A stretch of DNA of 64,000 bases from assembly GCF_001677475.2 (NCBI RefSeq), contig NZ_CP015229.1; one strand, given 5' to 3'. The notes beneath the pieces were generated by a model that saw only the letters and a program-made list of their open reading frames with translations, was not told where the DNA came from and ran no database searches. Shown here piece after piece: positions 11,033-40,572 of the stretch; within the stretch, counting starts at the first letter, position 1; every line of letters starts with the position of its first letter. A program made the position numbers and the translations under genes. This stretch comes from Escherichia coli. GTDB taxonomy: Bacteria > Pseudomonadota > Gammaproteobacteria > Enterobacterales > Enterobacteriaceae.

Positions 11033-11812
11033 ATGGAAATCAGTCTGTTGCAGGCATTCGCGTTGGGCATTATCGCCTTTATCGCTGGCCTGGATATGTT
11101 TAACGGCCTAACCCATATGCACCGCCCGGTGGTCCTCGGCCCGTTGGTCGGGCTGGTACTTGGCGATCTGCATACCGGTATTTTAACCGGCGGTACGCTG
11201 GAACTGGTGTGGATGGGGCTGGCCCCGCTGGCAGGCGCACAGCCGCCTAACGTGATTATCGGTACTATCGTCGGCACGGCGTTTGCCATTACTACCGGCG
11301 TGAAACCCGATGTCGCGGTCGGTGTCGCCGTACCTTTCGCTGTCGCAGTACAGATGGGGATTACCTTCCTGTTCTCGGTGATGTCTGGCGTAATGTCCCG
11401 CTGCGACCGGATGGCGGAGAACGCCGATACACGCGGCATTGAACGCGTGAACTATCTGGCACTGCTGGCACTCGGCACTTTCTATTTTCTCTGCGCTTTC
11501 CTGCCTATCTACTTCGGCGCAGAACATGCCAAAACCATCATTGATGTCCTACCGCAACGATTAATCGACGGCCTCGGCGTCGCGGGCGGCATCATGCCAG
11601 CAATCGGTTTTGCCGTACTGCTGAAAATCATGATGAAAAACGTCTACATCCCCTACTTCATCCTGGGCTTTGTTGCCGCAGCCTGGCTCAAGTTACCGGT
11701 GCTGGCTATTGCTGCCGCCGCGCTGGCGATGGCGCTGATCGACCTGCTGCGTAAATCTCCTGAACCGACTCAACCTGCGGCACAGAAAGAGGAATTTGAA
11801 GATGGCATCTAA
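11033..11812 (+). CDS. agaW: PTS N-acetylgalactosamine-specific IIC component, full length (259 aa)
   Basis: 259 aa membrane ORF paralogous to agaC; intact here, whereas I recall it truncated in K-12. Confidence 0.88.
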   Translation: MEISLLQAFALGIIAFIAGLDMFNGLTHMHRPVVLGPLVGLVLGDLHTGILTGGTLELVWMGLAPLAGAQPPNVIIGTIVGTAFAITTGVKPDVAVGVAVPFAVAVQMGITFLFSVMSGVMSRCDRMAENADTRGIERVNYLALLALGTFYFLCAFLPIYFGAEHAKTIIDVLPQRLIDGLGVAGGIMPAIGFAVLLKIMMKNVYIPYFILGFVAAAWLKLPVLAIAAAALAMALIDLLRKSPEPTQPAAQKEEFEDGI

Positions 11813-12680
11813 TCAAACCACCCTGCCGAACGTCAGTGAAAACGAAGAAACACTGCTGACAGGCGTCAATGAAAACGTGTATGAAGATCAGAGCATTGGC
11901 GCAGAGCTGACGAAAAAAGATATCAACCGCGTCGCCTGGCGTTCCATGCTGTTACAAGCGTCTTTTAACTACGAGCGTATGCAGGCTTCCGGCTGGTTGT
12001 ACGGTCTGCTGCCTGCTCTGAAAAAGATCCACACTAATAAACGCGACCTGGCGCGCGCCATGAAGGGGCATATGGGTTTCTTCAATACCCATCCGTTTCT
12101 GGTGACGTTTGTTATCGGCATTATCCTTGCGATGGAGCGTTCTAAGCAGGACGTTAACAGTATTCAGAGCACCAAAATTGCCGTCGGTGCGCCGCTCGGC
12201 GGGATTGGCGATGCGATGTTCTGGCTAACGCTACTGCCGATTTGTGGCGGGATAGGCGCAAGCCTCGCGCTACAAGGCTCTATTCTTGGCGCAGTCGTCT
12301 TTATTGTGCTGTTCAACGTGGTACACCTGGGGCTGCGTTTTGGTCTGGCGCATTATGCTTACCGCATGGGCGTGGCGGCGATTCCACTCATTAAAGCGAA
12401 TACCAAAAAAGTCGGCCATGCTGCGTCAATCGTTGGGATGACGGTAATCGGCGCGCTGGTGGCAACCTATGTTCGTTTAAGCACCACGCTGGAAATCACC
12501 GCTGGCGACGCAGTGGTTAAGTTACAGGCTGATGTTATCGACAAACTGATGCCTGCCTTCTTACCGCTGGTCTACACCCTGACCATGTTCTGGCTGGTAC
12601 GCCGCGGCTGGAGTCCGCTGCGCCTGATTGCAGTTACCGTGGTACTCGGCATCGTCGGTAAATTCTGTCATTTCCTTTAA
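11796..12680 (+). CDS. agaE: PTS N-acetylgalactosamine-specific IID component
   Basis: 294 aa ORF paralogous to agaD (KKDINRVAWRSMLLQASFNYERMQA); overlaps the agaW 3' end; start may be the second ATG at 11802. Confidence 0.85.
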   Translation: MKMASNQTTLPNVSENEETLLTGVNENVYEDQSIGAELTKKDINRVAWRSMLLQASFNYERMQASGWLYGLLPALKKIHTNKRDLARAMKGHMGFFNTHPFLVTFVIGIILAMERSKQDVNSIQSTKIAVGAPLGGIGDAMFWLTLLPICGGIGASLALQGSILGAVVFIVLFNVVHLGLRFGLAHYAYRMGVAAIPLIKANTKKVGHAASIVGMTVIGALVATYVRLSTTLEITAGDAVVKLQADVIDKLMPAFLPLVYTLTMFWLVRRGWSPLRLIAVTVVLGIVGKFCHFL

Positions 12681-12697
12681 ATACAATGAGGTATTAG

Positions 12698-13132
12698 ATG
12701 TTAAGTATTATTTTGACAGGGCATGGCGGATTTGCCAGCGGCATGGAAAAAGCAATGAAGCAAATCCTCGGCGAGCAATCGCAGTTTATCGCCATCGATT
12801 TTCCGGAAACCTCAAGCACCGCGCTGCTTACATCGCAGCTTGAAGAGGCCATCGCCCAACTGGATTGTGAAGACGGCATTGTTTTTCTGACGGATTTGCT
12901 GGGCGGCACGCCGTTTCGCGTAGCTTCAACGCTGGCGATGCAAAAACCGGGCTGTGAAGTGATCACCGGCACCAATTTGCAACTGCTACTGGAGATGGTG
13001 CTGGAGCGCGAAGGGTTAAGCGGTGAAGAGTTCCGTGTGCAGGCGCTTGAGTGTGGACACCGTGGGCTGACCAGTCTGGTAGATGAGTTAGGCCGCTGCC
13101 ATGAAGAATGTCCGGTCGAGGAAGGAATATGA
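12698..13132 (+). CDS. agaF: PTS IIA component (mannose family), 144 aa
   Basis: 144 aa ORF MLSIILTGHGGFASGMEKA; stop TGA overlaps the agaA ATG (ATGA at 13129-13132). Confidence 0.88.
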   Translation: MLSIILTGHGGFASGMEKAMKQILGEQSQFIAIDFPETSSTALLTSQLEEAIAQLDCEDGIVFLTDLLGGTPFRVASTLAMQKPGCEVITGTNLQLLLEMVLEREGLSGEEFRVQALECGHRGLTSLVDELGRCHEECPVEEGI

Positions 13133-14262
13133 CACCCGTTTTGCGCGCCAGAAGGCTGCTGACTGAAGAGGGATGGCTCGATGACCATCAGTTGCGTATT
13201 GCTGACGGTGTAATCGCAGCAATCGAACCGATTCCAGTGGGCGTGACTGAACGCGATGCGGAACTGCTCTGCCCCGCTTACATCGACACCCATGTACACG
13301 GTGGTGCGGGCGTTGATGTAATGGATGACGCGCCGGATGTGCTCGACAAGCTGGCAATGCACAAAGCACGCGAAGGTGTCGGCAGTTGGTTACCGACCAC
13401 CGTAACCGCGCCGCTTAATACCATTCATGCGGCGCTGGAACGTATTGCTCAACGTTGCCAACGCGGCGGACCTGGTGCGCAAGTGCTGGGGAGTTATCTC
13501 GAAGGACCGTACTTCACGCCGCAGAATAAAGGTGCGCATCCGCCGGAGCTGTTCCGCGAGCTGGAAATTGCCGAGCTGGATCAATTGATTGCCGTTTCTC
13601 AGCACACCTTGCGCGTGGTGGCGCTGGCACCGGAAAAAGAAGGGGCATTGCAGGCCATCCGCCATCTTAAACAGCAAAACGTACGGGTGATGCTGGGGCA
13701 TAGCGCGGCGACCTGGCAACAAACCCGTGCCGCGTTTGACGCTGGTGCCGACGGCCTGGTGCATTGCTATAACGGGATGACAGGTTTACATCACCGCGAA
13801 CCGGGAATGGTTGGCGCGGGATTAACGGACAAGCGCGCCTGGCTGGAACTGATAGCCGATGGTCATCATGTGCATCCGGCGGCGATGTCGCTGTGTTGTT
13901 GCTGTGCGAAAGAGAGAATCGTGCTCATCACCGACGCGATGCAGGCAGCAGGGATGCCGGATGGTCGCTATACGTTATGTGGTGAAGAAGTGCAGATGCA
14001 CGGTGGCGTTGTCCGTACCGCGTCCGGTGGGCTGGCGGGCAGTACGCTGTCTGTCGATGCGGCAGTGCGCAACATGGTCGAGTTGACGGGCGTAACGCCT
14101 GCGGAAGCCATCCATATGGCGTCGCTGCATCCGGCGCGTATGCTGGGTGTTGATGATGTTCTGGGATCGCTTAAACCGGGCAAACGCGCCAGCGTCGTTG
14201 CGCTGGATAGCGGGCTGCATGTGCAACAAATCTGGATTCAGGGTCAATTAGCTTCGTTTTGA
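13129..14262 (+). CDS. agaA: N-acetylgalactosamine-6-phosphate deacetylase, intact (377 aa)
   Basis: NagA-family amidohydrolase; start placed at the ATG preceded by gaggaagg SD (MTPVLRARRLL); full length here, whereas it is a pseudogene in K-12 as I recall. Confidence 0.88.
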   Translation: MTPVLRARRLLTEEGWLDDHQLRIADGVIAAIEPIPVGVTERDAELLCPAYIDTHVHGGAGVDVMDDAPDVLDKLAMHKAREGVGSWLPTTVTAPLNTIHAALERIAQRCQRGGPGAQVLGSYLEGPYFTPQNKGAHPPELFRELEIAELDQLIAVSQHTLRVVALAPEKEGALQAIRHLKQQNVRVMLGHSAATWQQTRAAFDAGADGLVHCYNGMTGLHHREPGMVGAGLTDKRAWLELIADGHHVHPAAMSLCCCCAKERIVLITDAMQAAGMPDGRYTLCGEEVQMHGGVVRTASGGLAGSTLSVDAAVRNMVELTGVTPAEAIHMASLHPARMLGVDDVLGSLKPGKRASVVALDSGLHVQQIWIQGQLASF

Positions 14263-14439
14263 TGGTTTGCTCCTTTATTGGGCCTTCACTTCCCCCGTAA
14301 GGCCTTTCTTTTTCTTTCGTTGTGCTCTGTGCAGGGTATCGGATGCGACGCTGACACATCTTCTTTGACCTACGGTACGCCGCATCCGGCAATCGGTGAA
14401 CATAGCGACGTCATCACGCAATCCTTTAATCTTCCCTTG

Positions 14440-14600
14440 TCTTTTCTTTCAACGATCACAAATTTCGTTTTATTTCCTTTTCCTCCATTGATCTTTCAGT
14501 TTCTTTTCTATAGATTTTGATCAACGAAATGTATCACCAAGTGAAACGAAACGAAAGGTAAGCGAAAGCGACAACGCCCGACGTCAAGTTCATCAGACTA
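14440..14600. promoter_or_regulatory. agaS promoter with AgaR operator-like repeats
   Basis: gtgaaacgaaacgaaaggtaagcgaaagcg and tttcgttttatttcc: the same repeated TTTCGTTT/GAAACG motif as the agaR-kbaZ region. Confidence 0.6.
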
Positions 14601-14611
14601 AGGATTGAGTT

Positions 14612-15766
14612 ATGCCAGAAAATTACACCCCTGCTGCTGCCGCAACCGGTACATGGACTGAAGAAGAGATCCGCCATCAGCCTCGCGCATGGATCCGTTC
14701 ACTCACCAACATCGACGCGCTACGTTCCGCGCTCAATAACTTCCTTGAACCGTTACTGCGCAAAGAGAATCTGCGGGTAATCCTGACCGGAGCCGGAACC
14801 TCGGCATTTATCGGTGACATCATCGCGCCGTGGCTCGCCAGCCATACCGGTAAAAACTTCAGCGCCGTACCGACCACCGATCTGGTCACCAATCCGATGG
14901 ACTACCTGAATCCAGCTCATCCACTGCTGTTGATCTCCTTCGGTCGATCCGGCAACAGCCCGGAAAGCGTCGCCGCCGTGGAACTGGCAAATCAATTTGT
15001 ACCCGAGTGCTATCACCTGCCGATCACCTGCAACGAAGCGGGCGCTCTTTACCAAAACGCGATCAACAGCGACAACGCGTTTGCCCTACTGATGCCCGCA
15101 GAAACGCACGATCGCGGCTTTGCGATGACCAGCAGCATTACCACCATGATGGCCAGCTGCCTCGCGGTTTTCGCACCTGAAACGATCAACAGCCAGAGCT
15201 TCCGCGACGTGGCGGATCGTTGCCAGGCGATCCTAACCTCACTGGGCGATTTCAGCGAAGGTGTGTTTGGTTACGCACCGTGGAAACGGATCGTTTATCT
15301 CGGCAGCGGTGGCTTACAGGGCGCAGCACGCGAGTCGGCGCTGAAAGTACTGGAACTGACGGCGGGTAAACTGGCGGCCTTTTATGATTCCCCGACCGGA
15401 TTCCGTCATGGACCAAAATCGCTGGTCGATAACGAAACGCTGGTGGTGGTATTTGTCTCCAGCCACCCTTACACCCGTCAGTATGATCTTGATCTGCTGG
15501 CTGAACTTCGCCGCGATAACCAGGCGATGCGCGTAATCGCTATCGCCGCGGAAAGCAACGACGTTATTACCGCCGGTCCACATATCATCCTGCCGCCGTC
15601 CCGTCACTTTATCGACGTTGAGCAGGCATTTTGCTTCCTGATGTACGCCCAGACGTTTGCACTGATGCAATCGCTGCACATGGGCAATACGCCGGATACC
15701 CCATCAGCCAGCGGCACCGTTAACCGCGTGGTGCAAGGCGTAATCATTCATCCGTGGCAGGCATAA
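14612..15766 (+). CDS. agaS: SIS-domain galactosamine-6-phosphate deaminase/isomerase, 384 aa
   Basis: 384 aa ORF, GlmS-C-terminal-like SIS domains. Confidence 0.9.
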   Translation: MPENYTPAAAATGTWTEEEIRHQPRAWIRSLTNIDALRSALNNFLEPLLRKENLRVILTGAGTSAFIGDIIAPWLASHTGKNFSAVPTTDLVTNPMDYLNPAHPLLLISFGRSGNSPESVAAVELANQFVPECYHLPITCNEAGALYQNAINSDNAFALLMPAETHDRGFAMTSSITTMMASCLAVFAPETINSQSFRDVADRCQAILTSLGDFSEGVFGYAPWKRIVYLGSGGLQGAARESALKVLELTAGKLAAFYDSPTGFRHGPKSLVDNETLVVVFVSSHPYTRQYDLDLLAELRRDNQAMRVIAIAAESNDVITAGPHIILPPSRHFIDVEQAFCFLMYAQTFALMQSLHMGNTPDTPSASGTVNRVVQGVIIHPWQA

Positions 15767-16639
<873 letters not shown>

Positions 16640-16805
16640 TCATTAGTTTTTTATGATTTATCCCAATGTACTTCCCGATTAATATCGGGGAGTGCCTTAA
16701 TGGAAAAGGAGATGACTAAACCTTAATAAATACATCAGTACAATATCGCAACAATAATATATTTAAAAAAATTATATTATTCAACTTTATGGTGAGGATT
16801 ACACA

Positions 16806-17282
16806 ATGAGCAGTCCAAATATTCTCTTAACCCGTATTGATAACCGTCTGGTTCATGGCCAGGTTGGCGTGACCTGGACATCCACCATCGGTGCAAATCT
16901 GCTGGTAGTCGTGGATGATGTTGTCGCTAACGATGATATTCAACAGAAATTAATGGGTATTACCGCGGAAACCTACGGCTTTGGCATTCGTTTCTTTACT
17001 ATCGAAAAAACCATTAACGTCATCGGCAAAGCTGCACCACACCAGAAGATCTTCCTGATTTGCCGTACGCCACAAACGGTACGTAAATTGGTAGAAGGTG
17101 GCATTGACCTGAAAGATGTCAACGTCGGCAATATGCATTTCTCGGAAGGGAAAAAGCAAATCAGCAGTAAAGTTTATGTCGATGACCAGGATCTCACGGA
17201 CTTACGTTTTATTAAACAACGTGGTGTGAATGTTTTCATTCAGGACGTCCCTGGCGATCAAAAAGAACAAATCCCTGACTAA
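16806..17282 (+). CDS. agaB: PTS galactosamine-specific IIB component, 158 aa
   Basis: MSSPNILLTRIDNRLVHGQ; 158 aa. Confidence 0.92.
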   Translation: MSSPNILLTRIDNRLVHGQVGVTWTSTIGANLLVVVDDVVANDDIQQKLMGITAETYGFGIRFFTIEKTINVIGKAAPHQKIFLICRTPQTVRKLVEGGIDLKDVNVGNMHFSEGKKQISSKVYVDDQDLTDLRFIKQRGVNVFIQDVPGDQKEQIPD

Positions 17283-17320
17283 ATCTAAAATCACCTTAAT
17301 ATTAGTTTGAGGTAATAAAA

Positions 17321-18124
17321 ATGCATGAAATAACCCTACTTCAGGGATTATCCCTGGCGGCGTTAGTTTTCGTTCTGGGGATTGATTTTTGGCTGGAAGC
17401 CTTATTTTTATTCCGCCCGATAATCGTTTGTACCCTAACTGGCGCTATTCTCGGTGATATTCAGACTGGCTTAATTACCGGTGGTCTGACAGAGTTGGCT
17501 TTCGCCGGATTAACCCCTGCAGGTGGTGTTCAGCCGCCCAACCCGATTATGGCGGGTCTGATGACCACCGTCATTGCATGGTCTACGGGCGTTGATGCCA
17601 AAACAGCAATTGGTCTTGGCCTGCCGTTTAGTTTGTTAATGCAGTACGTCATTCTGTTCTTCTATTCCGCTTTCTCATTATTTATGACCAAAGCCGATAA
17701 ATGCGCGAAAGAGGCGGATACGGCAGCGTTTTCCCGGCTTAACTGGACAACGATGCTCATCGTCGCTTCAGCGTATGCGGTGATTGCTTTCCTCTGTACT
17801 TACCTGGCACAAGGGGCGATGCAGGCGCTGGTGAAAGCGATGCCCGCCTGGTTGACCCACGGCTTTGAAGTGGCTGGCGGTATTCTGCCTGCCGTTGGTT
17901 TTGGCTTGCTGCTGCGCGTAATGTTCAAAGCGCAATATATCCCTTACCTGATCGCCGGTTTCCTGTTTGTTTGCTACATCCAGGTCAGCAACCTGTTGCC
18001 GGTTGCCGTACTGGGTGCAGGCTTTGCGGTGTATGAGTTTTTCAATGCGAAATCCCGGCAGCAAGCGCAACCGCAGCCCGTTGCCAGTAAAAATGAAGAA
18101 GAGGACTACAGCAATGGGATCTGA
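17321..18124 (+). CDS. agaC: PTS galactosamine-specific IIC component, 267 aa
   Basis: 267 aa membrane ORF; overlaps the agaD start by 11 nt. Confidence 0.92.
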   Translation: MHEITLLQGLSLAALVFVLGIDFWLEALFLFRPIIVCTLTGAILGDIQTGLITGGLTELAFAGLTPAGGVQPPNPIMAGLMTTVIAWSTGVDAKTAIGLGLPFSLLMQYVILFFYSAFSLFMTKADKCAKEADTAAFSRLNWTTMLIVASAYAVIAFLCTYLAQGAMQALVKAMPAWLTHGFEVAGGILPAVGFGLLLRVMFKAQYIPYLIAGFLFVCYIQVSNLLPVAVLGAGFAVYEFFNAKSRQQAQPQPVASKNEEEDYSNGI

Positions 18125-18905
18125 AATCAGTAAAAAAGATATCACCCGTCTGGGCTTTCGTTCGTCGCTGCTGCAAGCGAGCTTTAACTACGAAAGGATG
18201 CAGGCGGGCGGTTTTACCTGGGCGATGTTGCCGATCCTGAAAAAGATTTATAAGGATGACAAACCGGGCCTAAGCGCGGCGATGAAAGATAACCTCGAAT
18301 TTATTAATACCCACCCAAATCTCGTCGGATTCCTGATGGGGTTATTAATTTCGATGGAAGAAAAAGGAGAAAACCGCGACACCATTAAAGGCCTCAAAGT
18401 GGCACTGTTTGGCCCAATCGCCGGGATTGGCGATGCGATTTTCTGGTTTACTTTGTTGCCGATTATGGCGGGAATTTGCTCATCATTTGCCAGCCAGGGA
18501 AACCTGCTGGGGCCGATTCTATTTTTCGCCGTTTACCTGCTTATCTTTTTCCTGCGCGTCGGCTGGACCCACGTCGGTTATTCAGTCGGCGTGAAGGCGA
18601 TCGATAAAGTGCGAGAGAACTCGCAGATGATTGCCCGTTCGGCAACCATCCTCGGGATCACGGTAATCGGCGGGCTGATCGCTTCGTATGTGCATATTAA
18701 CGTGGTGACATCGTTTGCCATCGACAGTACCCACAGCGTCGCGCTGCAGCAGGATTTCTTCGATAAAGTCTTCCCGAACATTTTACCGATGGCCTACACC
18801 CTGCTGATGTATTACTTCCTGCGGGTGAAAAAAGCGCATCCGGTGCTGTTAATCGGCGTGACGTTTGTGCTCTCTATTGTTTGTTCCGCATTCGGCATTT
18901 TGTAA
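18114..18905 (+). CDS. agaD: PTS galactosamine-specific IID component, 263 aa
   Basis: Start at internal ATG (MGSEISKKDITRLGFRSSLLQASFNYERMQA), giving 263 aa. Confidence 0.9.
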   Translation: MGSEISKKDITRLGFRSSLLQASFNYERMQAGGFTWAMLPILKKIYKDDKPGLSAAMKDNLEFINTHPNLVGFLMGLLISMEEKGENRDTIKGLKVALFGPIAGIGDAIFWFTLLPIMAGICSSFASQGNLLGPILFFAVYLLIFFLRVGWTHVGYSVGVKAIDKVRENSQMIARSATILGITVIGGLIASYVHINVVTSFAIDSTHSVALQQDFFDKVFPNILPMAYTLLMYYFLRVKKAHPVLLIGVTFVLSIVCSAFGIL

Positions 18906-19673
18906 ATGGAACGAGGCACTGCTTCTGGCGGTGCCTCTTTACTTAAGGAATTTCATCCTGTGCAAACCCTTCAGCAAGTTGAAAACTATACGGCGTTAAG
19001 TGAACGTGCCAGCGAATATTTATTGGCCGTGATCCGTAGCAAACCGGATGCCGTGATTTGCCTGGCGACCGGAGCCACGCCATTACTGACGTATCATTAT
19101 CTGGTAGAAAAAATCCACCAGCAGCAGGTTGATGTCAGCCAACTAACCTTCGTCAAGCTCGACGAATGGGTGGATCTGCCATTAACTATGCCTGGCACCT
19201 GCGAAACTTTCCTGCAACAGCATATCGTGCAGCCGCTGGGGCTACGTGAAGACCAGCTCATCAGCTTTCGCTCCGAAGAGATAAATGAGACAGAGTGCGA
19301 ACGGGTAACGAACCTGATTGCGCGCAAAGGCGGTCTGGATTTATGCGTTCTCGGATTGGGGAAAAACGGTCATCTTGGGCTGAACGAACCGGGAGAAAAC
19401 CTGCAACCGACCTGCCATATCAGTCAACTTGATGCCAGAACACAGCAACATGAGATGTTAAAAACCGCGGGCCGTCCCGTGACTCGTGGGATCACCTTAG
19501 GCCTGAAGGATATTCTCAATGCCCGCGAAGTTTTGTTACTGGTGACTGGCGAAGGAAAGCAGGATGCGACAGAACGTTTTCTCACGGCTAAAGTCTCCAC
19601 CGCTATCCCGGCTTCGTTTTTATGGCTGCATAACTATTTCACATGCATGATTGATGAGATGTGTCGTCGTTAA
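18906..19673 (+). CDS. agaI: Galactosamine-6-phosphate deaminase/isomerase (NagB family), 255 aa
   Basis: ATG immediately follows the agaD TAA (TAAATG at 18903-18908); NagB-like fold. Confidence 0.88.
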   Translation: MERGTASGGASLLKEFHPVQTLQQVENYTALSERASEYLLAVIRSKPDAVICLATGATPLLTYHYLVEKIHQQQVDVSQLTFVKLDEWVDLPLTMPGTCETFLQQHIVQPLGLREDQLISFRSEEINETECERVTNLIARKGGLDLCVLGLGKNGHLGLNEPGENLQPTCHISQLDARTQQHEMLKTAGRPVTRGITLGLKDILNAREVLLLVTGEGKQDATERFLTAKVSTAIPASFLWLHNYFTCMIDEMCRR

Positions 19674-19676
19674 CTC

Positions 19677-19720
19677 GCCTGCTACAGGCGTTGCAACGCT
19701 ATTCCTGCTGCGACGCCTGT
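19677..19720. terminator. Nested palindromes between the convergent agaI and rsmI stops (putative bidirectional terminator)
   Basis: cgcctg-cta-caggcg, gcgttgcaacgc and outer acaggcgt ... acgcctgt inverted repeats; no strong T-run. Confidence 0.5.
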
Positions 19721-19722
19721 AA

Positions 19723-20586
19723 TCACTCTCCCTGCTGCTCCAGTGCATACTTATACAGCGCATTTTTCTTCACGCCGTGAATTTCTGCGGCCAGCGCCGC
19801 CGCTTTTTTCAGCGGCAGTTCTGCCTGTAGCAGCGCCAGCGTGCGCAGGGCATCGGCGGGTAAGTCTTCTTCCTGTGCTTTATGGCCTTCGACAATCAGT
19901 ACCATTTCGCCTTTGCGACGGTTTTCATCTTCTTTGACCCACGCCAGCAGCTCGCCAACGGGCGCGCCGTGAATGGTTTCCCAGGTTTTGGTCAGCTCAC
20001 GCGCCAGAACGACGTAGCGGGATTCGCCTAATACCGCAACGATATCTTCCAGGCTATCTAACAGACGGTGGGTAGATTCATAAAAAATCAGCGTGCGCGG
20101 CTCCGCTTCAATGGCTTTTAGCGCATCACGGCGGCCTTTTGATTTGGCAGGTAAAAAGCCTTCATAACAAAAACGATCGGATGGTAAACCCGCGGCGCTT
20201 AACGCAGTGATAGCAGCACACGGCCCGGGTAGCGGCACCACGAGAATCCCCGCTTCACGGCAGGTACGCACCAGATGGTAGCCAGGATCGTTAATTAGCG
20301 GCGTTCCGGCATCGGAAACCAGCGCAATGTTTTGCCCCTCTTGCAGCTTCGCCAGCAGCGTTTCGGCTTTTTGTTGTTCGTTATGGTCGTGCAGCGCAAA
20401 CAACCGAGCATTAATCCCAAAATGTTGCAGCAATAAACCGGTGTGACGCGTATCCTCGGCGGCAATCAGATCAACGGCCTGTAATACCTCCAACGCACGC
20501 TGGGTGATATCCGCCAGATTGCCGATTGGCGTCGGTACAATGTAAAGCTGGCCCTGAGAATTATCCGCCGATTGGTGTTGTTTCAT
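19723..20586 (-). CDS. rsmI: 16S rRNA C1402 2'-O-methyltransferase
   Basis: 287 aa [31 protein letters not shown], tetrapyrrole-methylase-like fold. Confidence 0.92.
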
Positions 20587-40461: not shown

Positions 40462-40494
40462 AAAATTAATTTCAGGTGGAAGGGCTGTTCACGT

Positions 40495-40572
40495 TGGCCT
40501 GATAAGACGCGCCAGCGTCGCATCAGGCAATCCATGCCGGATGCGGCGTAAACGCCTTATCCCGCATGGAAC
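40495..40572. repeat. REP/BIME element between infB and rbfA
   Basis: gcctgataagacgcgccagcgtcgcatcaggc and tgccggatgcggcgtaaacgccttatcccgcatgg. Confidence 0.85.

Follow-up and report, generated by a model that had tools for sequence, protein, structure and literature searches.

The locus analysed here lies in a 64,000-bp stretch of E. coli DNA, called the window throughout, and comprises the 3′ ends of two convergent genes, agaI and rsmI, together with the short spacer between their stop codons (Table 1). The initial annotation, made from the sequence of the window before any comparison, had put these stop codons 49 bp apart, and the ORF coordinates agree. The identity of both genes is in accordance with RefSeq, which names the colinear genes agaI in strains 1190 and GF43 and whose annotation of colinear genomes agrees for rsmI. 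When AgaI of the window was aligned with NagB of Bacillus subtilis (2bkv), the alignment ran over residues 23-251 (E = 4e-35) and paired LWLHNYFTCMIDE with the last strand of NagB, LHLHSDVTVLIDR, through residue 251; the domain of the NagB/AgaI family, up to and including its last β-strand (...H-x-x-[VF]-T-x-[LM]-I-D), is present. The gene closes an aga/gam cluster (9246-19673) of intact ORFs in the order kbaZ, agaV, agaW, agaE, agaF, agaA, agaS, kbaY, agaB, agaC, agaD, agaI, which is colinear with strain GF43; agaW and agaA, intact in the window, exist in K-12 as pseudogene fragments only.

Table 1. Features of the agaI-rsmI interval in the window and of the segments found at the same slot in other strains.
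Feature	Coordinates	Strand	Description
agaI	18906-19673	+	galactosamine-6-phosphate isomerase/deaminase family, 255 aa, intact ORF; TAA at 19671-19673
agaI allele-specific 3′ tail	19631-19673	+	codons after His-242, NYFTCMIDEMCRR and stop; from alignments
Spacer between convergent agaI and rsmI stop codons	19674-19722		49 bp; 'empty' allele of the slot
Small alternative stem-loop CGCCTG-CTA-CAGGCG	19676-19690		arms 19676-19681 and 19685-19690; overlaps main hairpin
Main hairpin	19683-19721		13-bp stem plus two inner pairs; arms TACAGGCGTTGCA (19683-19695) and TGCGACGCCTGTA (19709-19721); no U/T run on either side
Perfect 12-nt palindrome GCGTTGCAACGC	19688-19699		partly left arm of main stem, partly loop region
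rsmI	19723-20586	-	16S rRNA C1402 2′-O-methyltransferase, 287 aa, ORF; stop TCA (= TGA) at 19723-19725
rsmI allele-specific 3′ end	19723-19729	-	extra Glu codon and TGA stop; from alignments
yra island	L001:6027-11475		fimbrial allele of the slot
Terminator-like hairpin directly after rsmI, K-12 yra allele	L001:11440-11465		10-bp hairpin with U-rich tail
Toxin-antitoxin (TA) cassette, E. coli XJ6-3	L002:2275-3125		851 bp; equivalent to window 19675-19721
LysR-MBL cassette, E. coli VE-T9	L010:3501-5921		also in L011 (O145:H28 RM13516)

The three palindromes that had been described in the spacer were all recovered by a repeat finder, the outer pair being longer than claimed. The two 13-nt arms of the main hairpin are 92% complementary, and RNA folding gave -24.5 kcal/mol for the + strand (z = -3.6, matched by 1 of 200 shuffles) and, for the - strand, -24.3 kcal/mol (z = -2.5); folding of the spacer exceeds chance. 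Across seven distinct sequences the hairpin is conserved, with a mean column identity of 96% and 96% of stem cells paired. Among these seven sequences a single compensatory change was seen, from G-C to A-U in strain E69, and covariation showed no excess over shuffles. The loop and one stem base of the small stem-loop vary among strains, and the palindrome GCGTTGCAACGC is not conserved as a palindrome, because most other strains have GCGTTGCAGCGC. As regards intrinsic termination, the stable GC-rich stem-loop is present, but a U/T run directly 3′ of it is absent: a pattern scan of 19674-19722 on both strands returned no terminator-like site, and the stem is followed by AATCACTC on the + strand and by GCAGGCGAG on the - strand. 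The spacer hairpin is not a canonical intrinsic terminator. In contrast, the K-12 yra allele carries a terminator-like hairpin with a U tract immediately after rsmI, and the two alleles may, to judge from these motifs, end their rsmI transcripts differently. As a working view, the hairpin of the window would be a shared 3′-end structure of both convergent transcripts, which might block read-through or protect the transcripts from 3′ exonucleases. Neither covariation nor a U tract lends support to such a function.

The spacer was also considered as a degenerate REP, since Trabulsiella has REPs at this position and part of the spacer resembles GCCTGATGCGACGC. Like a REP or BIME, it is a GC-rich imperfect palindrome between convergent genes; unlike these elements, it is single-copy in every genome and has no match to the REP consensus, and the candidate was rejected. 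In 1,821 genomes carrying the spacer it was found at one place per genome at E ≤ 10. Its stem-arm motif, with up to two mismatches, occurred within the window only at the spacer, at chance level, and a degenerate REP consensus with up to three mismatches matched the window only at 40493-40528. A canonical REP element with one mismatch to the consensus does lie in the window, at 40493-40566, where it overlaps an Rfam match to naRNA4. No Rfam family matched the spacer itself at the gathering threshold.

The absence of a fimbrial operon was the main claim of the initial annotation, which had given the K-12 gene order as yraH-yraI-yraJ-yraK between agaI and rsmI. This order matches the MG1655 annotation, in which agaI is followed by yraH, yraI, yraJ and yraK and then by rsmI on the opposite strand; the alternative that agaI and rsmI are equally adjacent in K-12 does not hold. 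The yraHIJK locus (b3142-b3145) is a cryptic chaperone-usher fimbrial locus, with YraJ as the usher, YraI as the periplasmic chaperone and YraH and YraK as fimbrial subunits. In the window no usher/chaperone/subunit operon of this kind stands between agaI and rsmI: the interval measures 49 bp, and a tblastn search of the whole 64-kb window with the four K-12 Yra proteins gave 0 matches at E ≤ 1e-3.

By pairwise alignment and BLAST, homology to K-12 ends at position 19630 of the window and restarts at 19730, such that 99 allele-specific bp (19631-19729) correspond to 5,484 bp in K-12. The indel boundary, which had been left to be mapped, was thus located at 19630/19631, inside codon 243 of agaI, and at 19729/19730, at the end of rsmI. 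The flanking genes are the same in the two genomes and the flanks are 97.5-97.9% identical, with 0-6 differences in every 100 nt as far as the breakpoints themselves. An old linked polymorphism should make divergence rise near the indel, but no such rise was seen between the window and K-12; the breakpoints are abrupt. The island has 45.1% GC against 50.7-52.6% in its flanks, and the agaI-yraH spacer only 27%. A GC content below that of the flanks is the usual signature of acquired DNA, and the K-12 yra segment shows this deviating composition. Hallmarks of mobility are missing, with no integrase, transposase or tRNA annotated between agaI and rsmI in K-12. Direct repeats or a fimbrial-gene residue, which had been proposed as possible traces of the event, were found neither in the 99 bp nor at the ends of the island. 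The longest k-mer shared by the island ends was 6 nt, which gives no sign of a target-site duplication, and neither allele has a direct repeat of at least 7 nt at its ends; comparison of the 99 bp with the K-12 island yielded no significant match (best E = 0.096) and 7-11-mers at chance level. An 8-mer, GCAACGCT, present in the spacer and just downstream of K-12 yraK, was examined as a yra residue or shared terminator stem and was treated as chance, because equally good 8-mers occur throughout the island.

Since the breakpoints fall inside genes, the AgaI and RsmI products of the window both differ from those of K-12. AgaI of the window ends in ...WLHNYFTCMIDEMCRR (255 aa) and that of K-12 in ...WLHSNFICLINT (251 aa), the last residues being ...HNYFTCMIDEMCRR in the window versus ...HSNFICLINT in K-12; RsmI ends in ...EQQGE (287 aa) versus ...EQQG (286 aa). 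The C-terminus of AgaI had been given as ...LWLHNYFTCMIDEMCRR, which is how it reads, and the suggestion that the indel boundary might alter the last agaI codons was borne out and extends to the end of rsmI. In nucleotide terms, the window and K-12 agree at 44% of the 27 nt that follow the WLH codons of agaI, as against 93% of the preceding 60 nt. An ungapped comparison of the two tails shows that the K-12 tail HSNFICLINT is equal in length to the window tail over the last strand; it is therefore a real, very divergent agaI end and not a random read-through. The yra-linked tails of K-12, E. whittamii and Escherichia sp. MOD1-EC7003 are 74% identical to one another and 44-59% identical to the window tail, whereas just upstream the window, K-12, ST131 and E. 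albertii are 90-98% identical with no such sorting. The agaI tails group by allele, not by species, and since the yra-linked tails are alike while the upstream agaI sequence is not sorted by allele, the tail travels with the island. RsmI follows the same division, with QQGE at the end of all alleles that carry the hairpin, the TA pair or the LysR-MBL pair and QQG or QQE in the yra alleles. Annotation pipelines should accordingly not read these allele-specific C-termini of AgaI and RsmI as truncations.

In order to see how common each arrangement is, 5,426 complete E. coli genomes were surveyed. Sequence of the yra island was present at the slot in 3,523 genomes, 3,264 of which have at least 80% of the island; K-12, BL21, O157:H7, O103:H2, O111:H8 and O121 strains belong to this group. 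The 55-bp hairpin junction was found in 1,821 genomes (34%), at one place per genome and always between agaI and rsmI, in strains of B2 (O25b:H4-ST131, Nissle 1917, APEC IMT5155, M1/5) and of D (O15:H18 ST69); 584 genomes match it at 100%, and in the remainder identity is 90-99%. A pair encoding a RelE/ParE toxin and an HTH antitoxin occupied the slot in 13 genomes, and a pair encoding a LysR regulator and an MBL-fold hydrolase in 64. The four sets add up to 5,421, leaving about five genomes unaccounted for, so that they can overlap in few genomes at most and are effectively mutually exclusive. A 1,701-bp query across the junction was contiguous in 1,835 genomes, a number that matches the hairpin genomes and the 13 with a toxin-antitoxin pair taken together. 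It had been left open whether the junction is simply the common state of the species; it is not that of the majority, though it is very common.

The yra-less junctions of the B2 and D strains (ST131, Nissle 1917, IMT5155 and ST69) share the architecture of the window exactly, with a 255-aa agaI product, a 49-bp spacer and a 287-aa rsmI product, and differ from it by a few substitutions only. Two spacer variants occur in E. coli, the window type (the 584 identical genomes) and the M1/5 type with five differences. One of the records that match the junction bears the label of a plasmid; the replicon may be mislabelled, or a large plasmid may carry a piece of chromosome. The lineage of the window itself appears to be unrepresented among the complete E. 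coli genomes: over 24 kb (1-24000) none of the 5,426 exceeded 98.5% identity, and the best 1.7-kb match at the junction was 99.1%. In a local comparison the window was 95.6% identical to Escherichia sp. E1V33 and 97.5-98.8% identical to K-12, XJ6-3 and 1190.

A yra-less agaI-rsmI arrangement is an ordinary one, being common (about one third of E. coli) and already documented. Chaperone-usher operons have been catalogued by locus, with the distribution of Yra given in Figure 5 of that catalogue (Wurpel et al., 2013; PMC3559732). The presence or absence of yra was likewise known beforehand, because its acquisition by the E/B1/A lineage, as a single gain on the EB1A branch, has been published (PMC6896753). 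The present data matter little beyond confirming that the E/B1/A and D/F/G/B2 parts of E. coli are set apart by the presence or absence of the cryptic Yra locus; what they add is small, namely breakpoints at base level and the multi-allelic nature of the slot. As a short sequence present once per genome, the junction also marks the yra-less allele.

The slot was then followed beyond E. coli by a species-level scan with AgaI, which recovered six loci with one genome per outgroup species and did not recover E. fergusonii, E. marmotae or E. ruysiae. E. albertii NBRC 107761 has the same 49-bp spacer type, with the AgaI tail ...DEMCRR and the RsmI end ...QGE, and the slot is arranged in the same way in Escherichia sp. 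E1V33 and in 'E. coli' E69, a separate GTDB species. In Trabulsiella odontotermitis, agaD-agaI converges with rsmI-lpoA and only REP-like sequence lies between. E. whittamii, on the other hand, carries yraHIJK at the slot (83-90% aa identity to K-12), and Escherichia sp. MOD1-EC7003 a much more divergent Yra-like operon (53-65% aa identity to K-12), so the occupied allele is also old in the genus.

The initial annotation had offered two explanations for the junction, an unoccupied ancestral site or a clean deletion. Under the second, a yra-bearing ancestor would have lost the 5.5-kb operon in one deletion that fused both gene ends. Loss or decay of fimbrial operons is frequent in E. coli, and the island itself provides examples: 259 of the 3,523 yra genomes hold less than 80% of it, some of the islands among the genomes listed being disrupted by IS elements or partial deletions, and in strain EC25 no more than 136 bp remain. 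(Among the genomes listed, those of O157:H7 have the IS3-family element IS1203 in the island, and several others IS1.) However, the 99 bp between the breakpoints are absent from the K-12-like yra allele, and a simple deletion therefore cannot yield the junction of the window. Moreover, this junction, with both of its altered gene ends, is common to 1,821 E. coli genomes and E. albertii, so any loss would predate the radiation of the genus, and the composition of the island is foreign-like. A deletion is thus highly improbable as the origin of the junction, and a recent one is largely refuted.

We favour the other explanation, that the window carries the unoccupied, old and probably ancestral allele of a polymorphic agaI-rsmI slot and that the E/B1/A lineage replaced 99 bp of it with a 5.5-kb yra segment, and we put its probability at roughly 80%. 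This reading rests on the absence of any yra remnant or repeats, on the low GC of the island and on the empty state in E. albertii and in another genus, Trabulsiella, where the two genes are also convergent. In its 1,821 genomes the hairpin junction forms one conserved haplotype. As for the course of the event, we infer that in K-12 and the rest of the E/B1/A strains a low-GC segment took the place of the 99 bp. This segment has yraHIJK with an AT-rich regulatory region and a terminator, along with an agaI tail that is homologous but foreign and an rsmI end that differs slightly. Homologous recombination within the flanking genes would be the most likely route, the donor being one in which yra already stood beside agaI. 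Simple parsimony is a weak guide to the direction, because the occupied allele is also old in the genus and because of recombination, and the allele-specific AgaI tails are too short to polarise the change against Trabulsiella or NagB.

These same features bring in a serious partial alternative, in which the two alleles are older than E. coli and homologous recombination has moved them between Escherichia lineages. The terms 'ancestral' and 'derived' would then lose any clear sense inside E. coli, and the split between E/B1/A and D/F/G/B2 would reflect which allele each lineage inherited or imported. Both states do occur in Escherichia other than E. coli, and the sorting of agaI tails by allele points the same way. 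So does the spacer, in which the window differs from E. albertii at 1 of 49 positions despite a 19% difference at third codon positions of the flanking genes, and from M1/5, SX4 and LTC201, all E. coli, at 5 of 49. Such near-identity suggests either constraint or a sharing of alleles across species. For the deeper past, an ancient polymorphism of this kind is compatible with the replacement of an unoccupied site: Trabulsiella and E. albertii are unoccupied, and the island is low in GC. The published reconstruction (PMC6896753) places yra as one gain on a single branch. As a full account of the locus, we regard it as unlikely, though clearly less so than a deletion.

The remaining alleles show that fimbriae are not the only cargo of the slot. 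The TA cassette takes the place of the hairpin, with its ends almost exactly at the two stop codons (Table 1), and so does the LysR-MBL cassette; both alleles retain agaI and rsmI ends of the window type, and the two cassettes share their first 122 bp on the left and their last 66 bp on the right. Multi-allelic integration hotspots between conserved core genes occur in E. coli, and the agaI-rsmI interval resembles them in holding mutually exclusive cargos: nothing, Yra fimbriae, a RelE/ParE-HTH pair, or a LysR regulator with an MBL-fold hydrolase. It differs from them in having no integrase, tRNA, IS element or direct repeats, and exchange at this site appears to rely on homology between flanking genes. 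That the Yra allele carries its own agaI tail would imply a donor in which yra was already next to agaI. A tentative extension, which we hold at somewhat less than even odds, is that the interval forms a multi-allelic cargo slot whose contents pass between Escherichia lineages through homologous recombination. It would comprise two families of gene ends, one with AgaI ...DEMCRR and RsmI ...QGE, in which a 45-nt hairpin, the TA pair or LysR plus MBL is swapped within one base of the stops, and another with Yra fimbriae and its own agaI tail; the hairpin would in that case be a selected 3′-end element rather than neutral filler. In O145:H28 strains with the LysR-MBL cassette, the aga genes to the left were found to be replaced by malX/malY-like and PTS genes.
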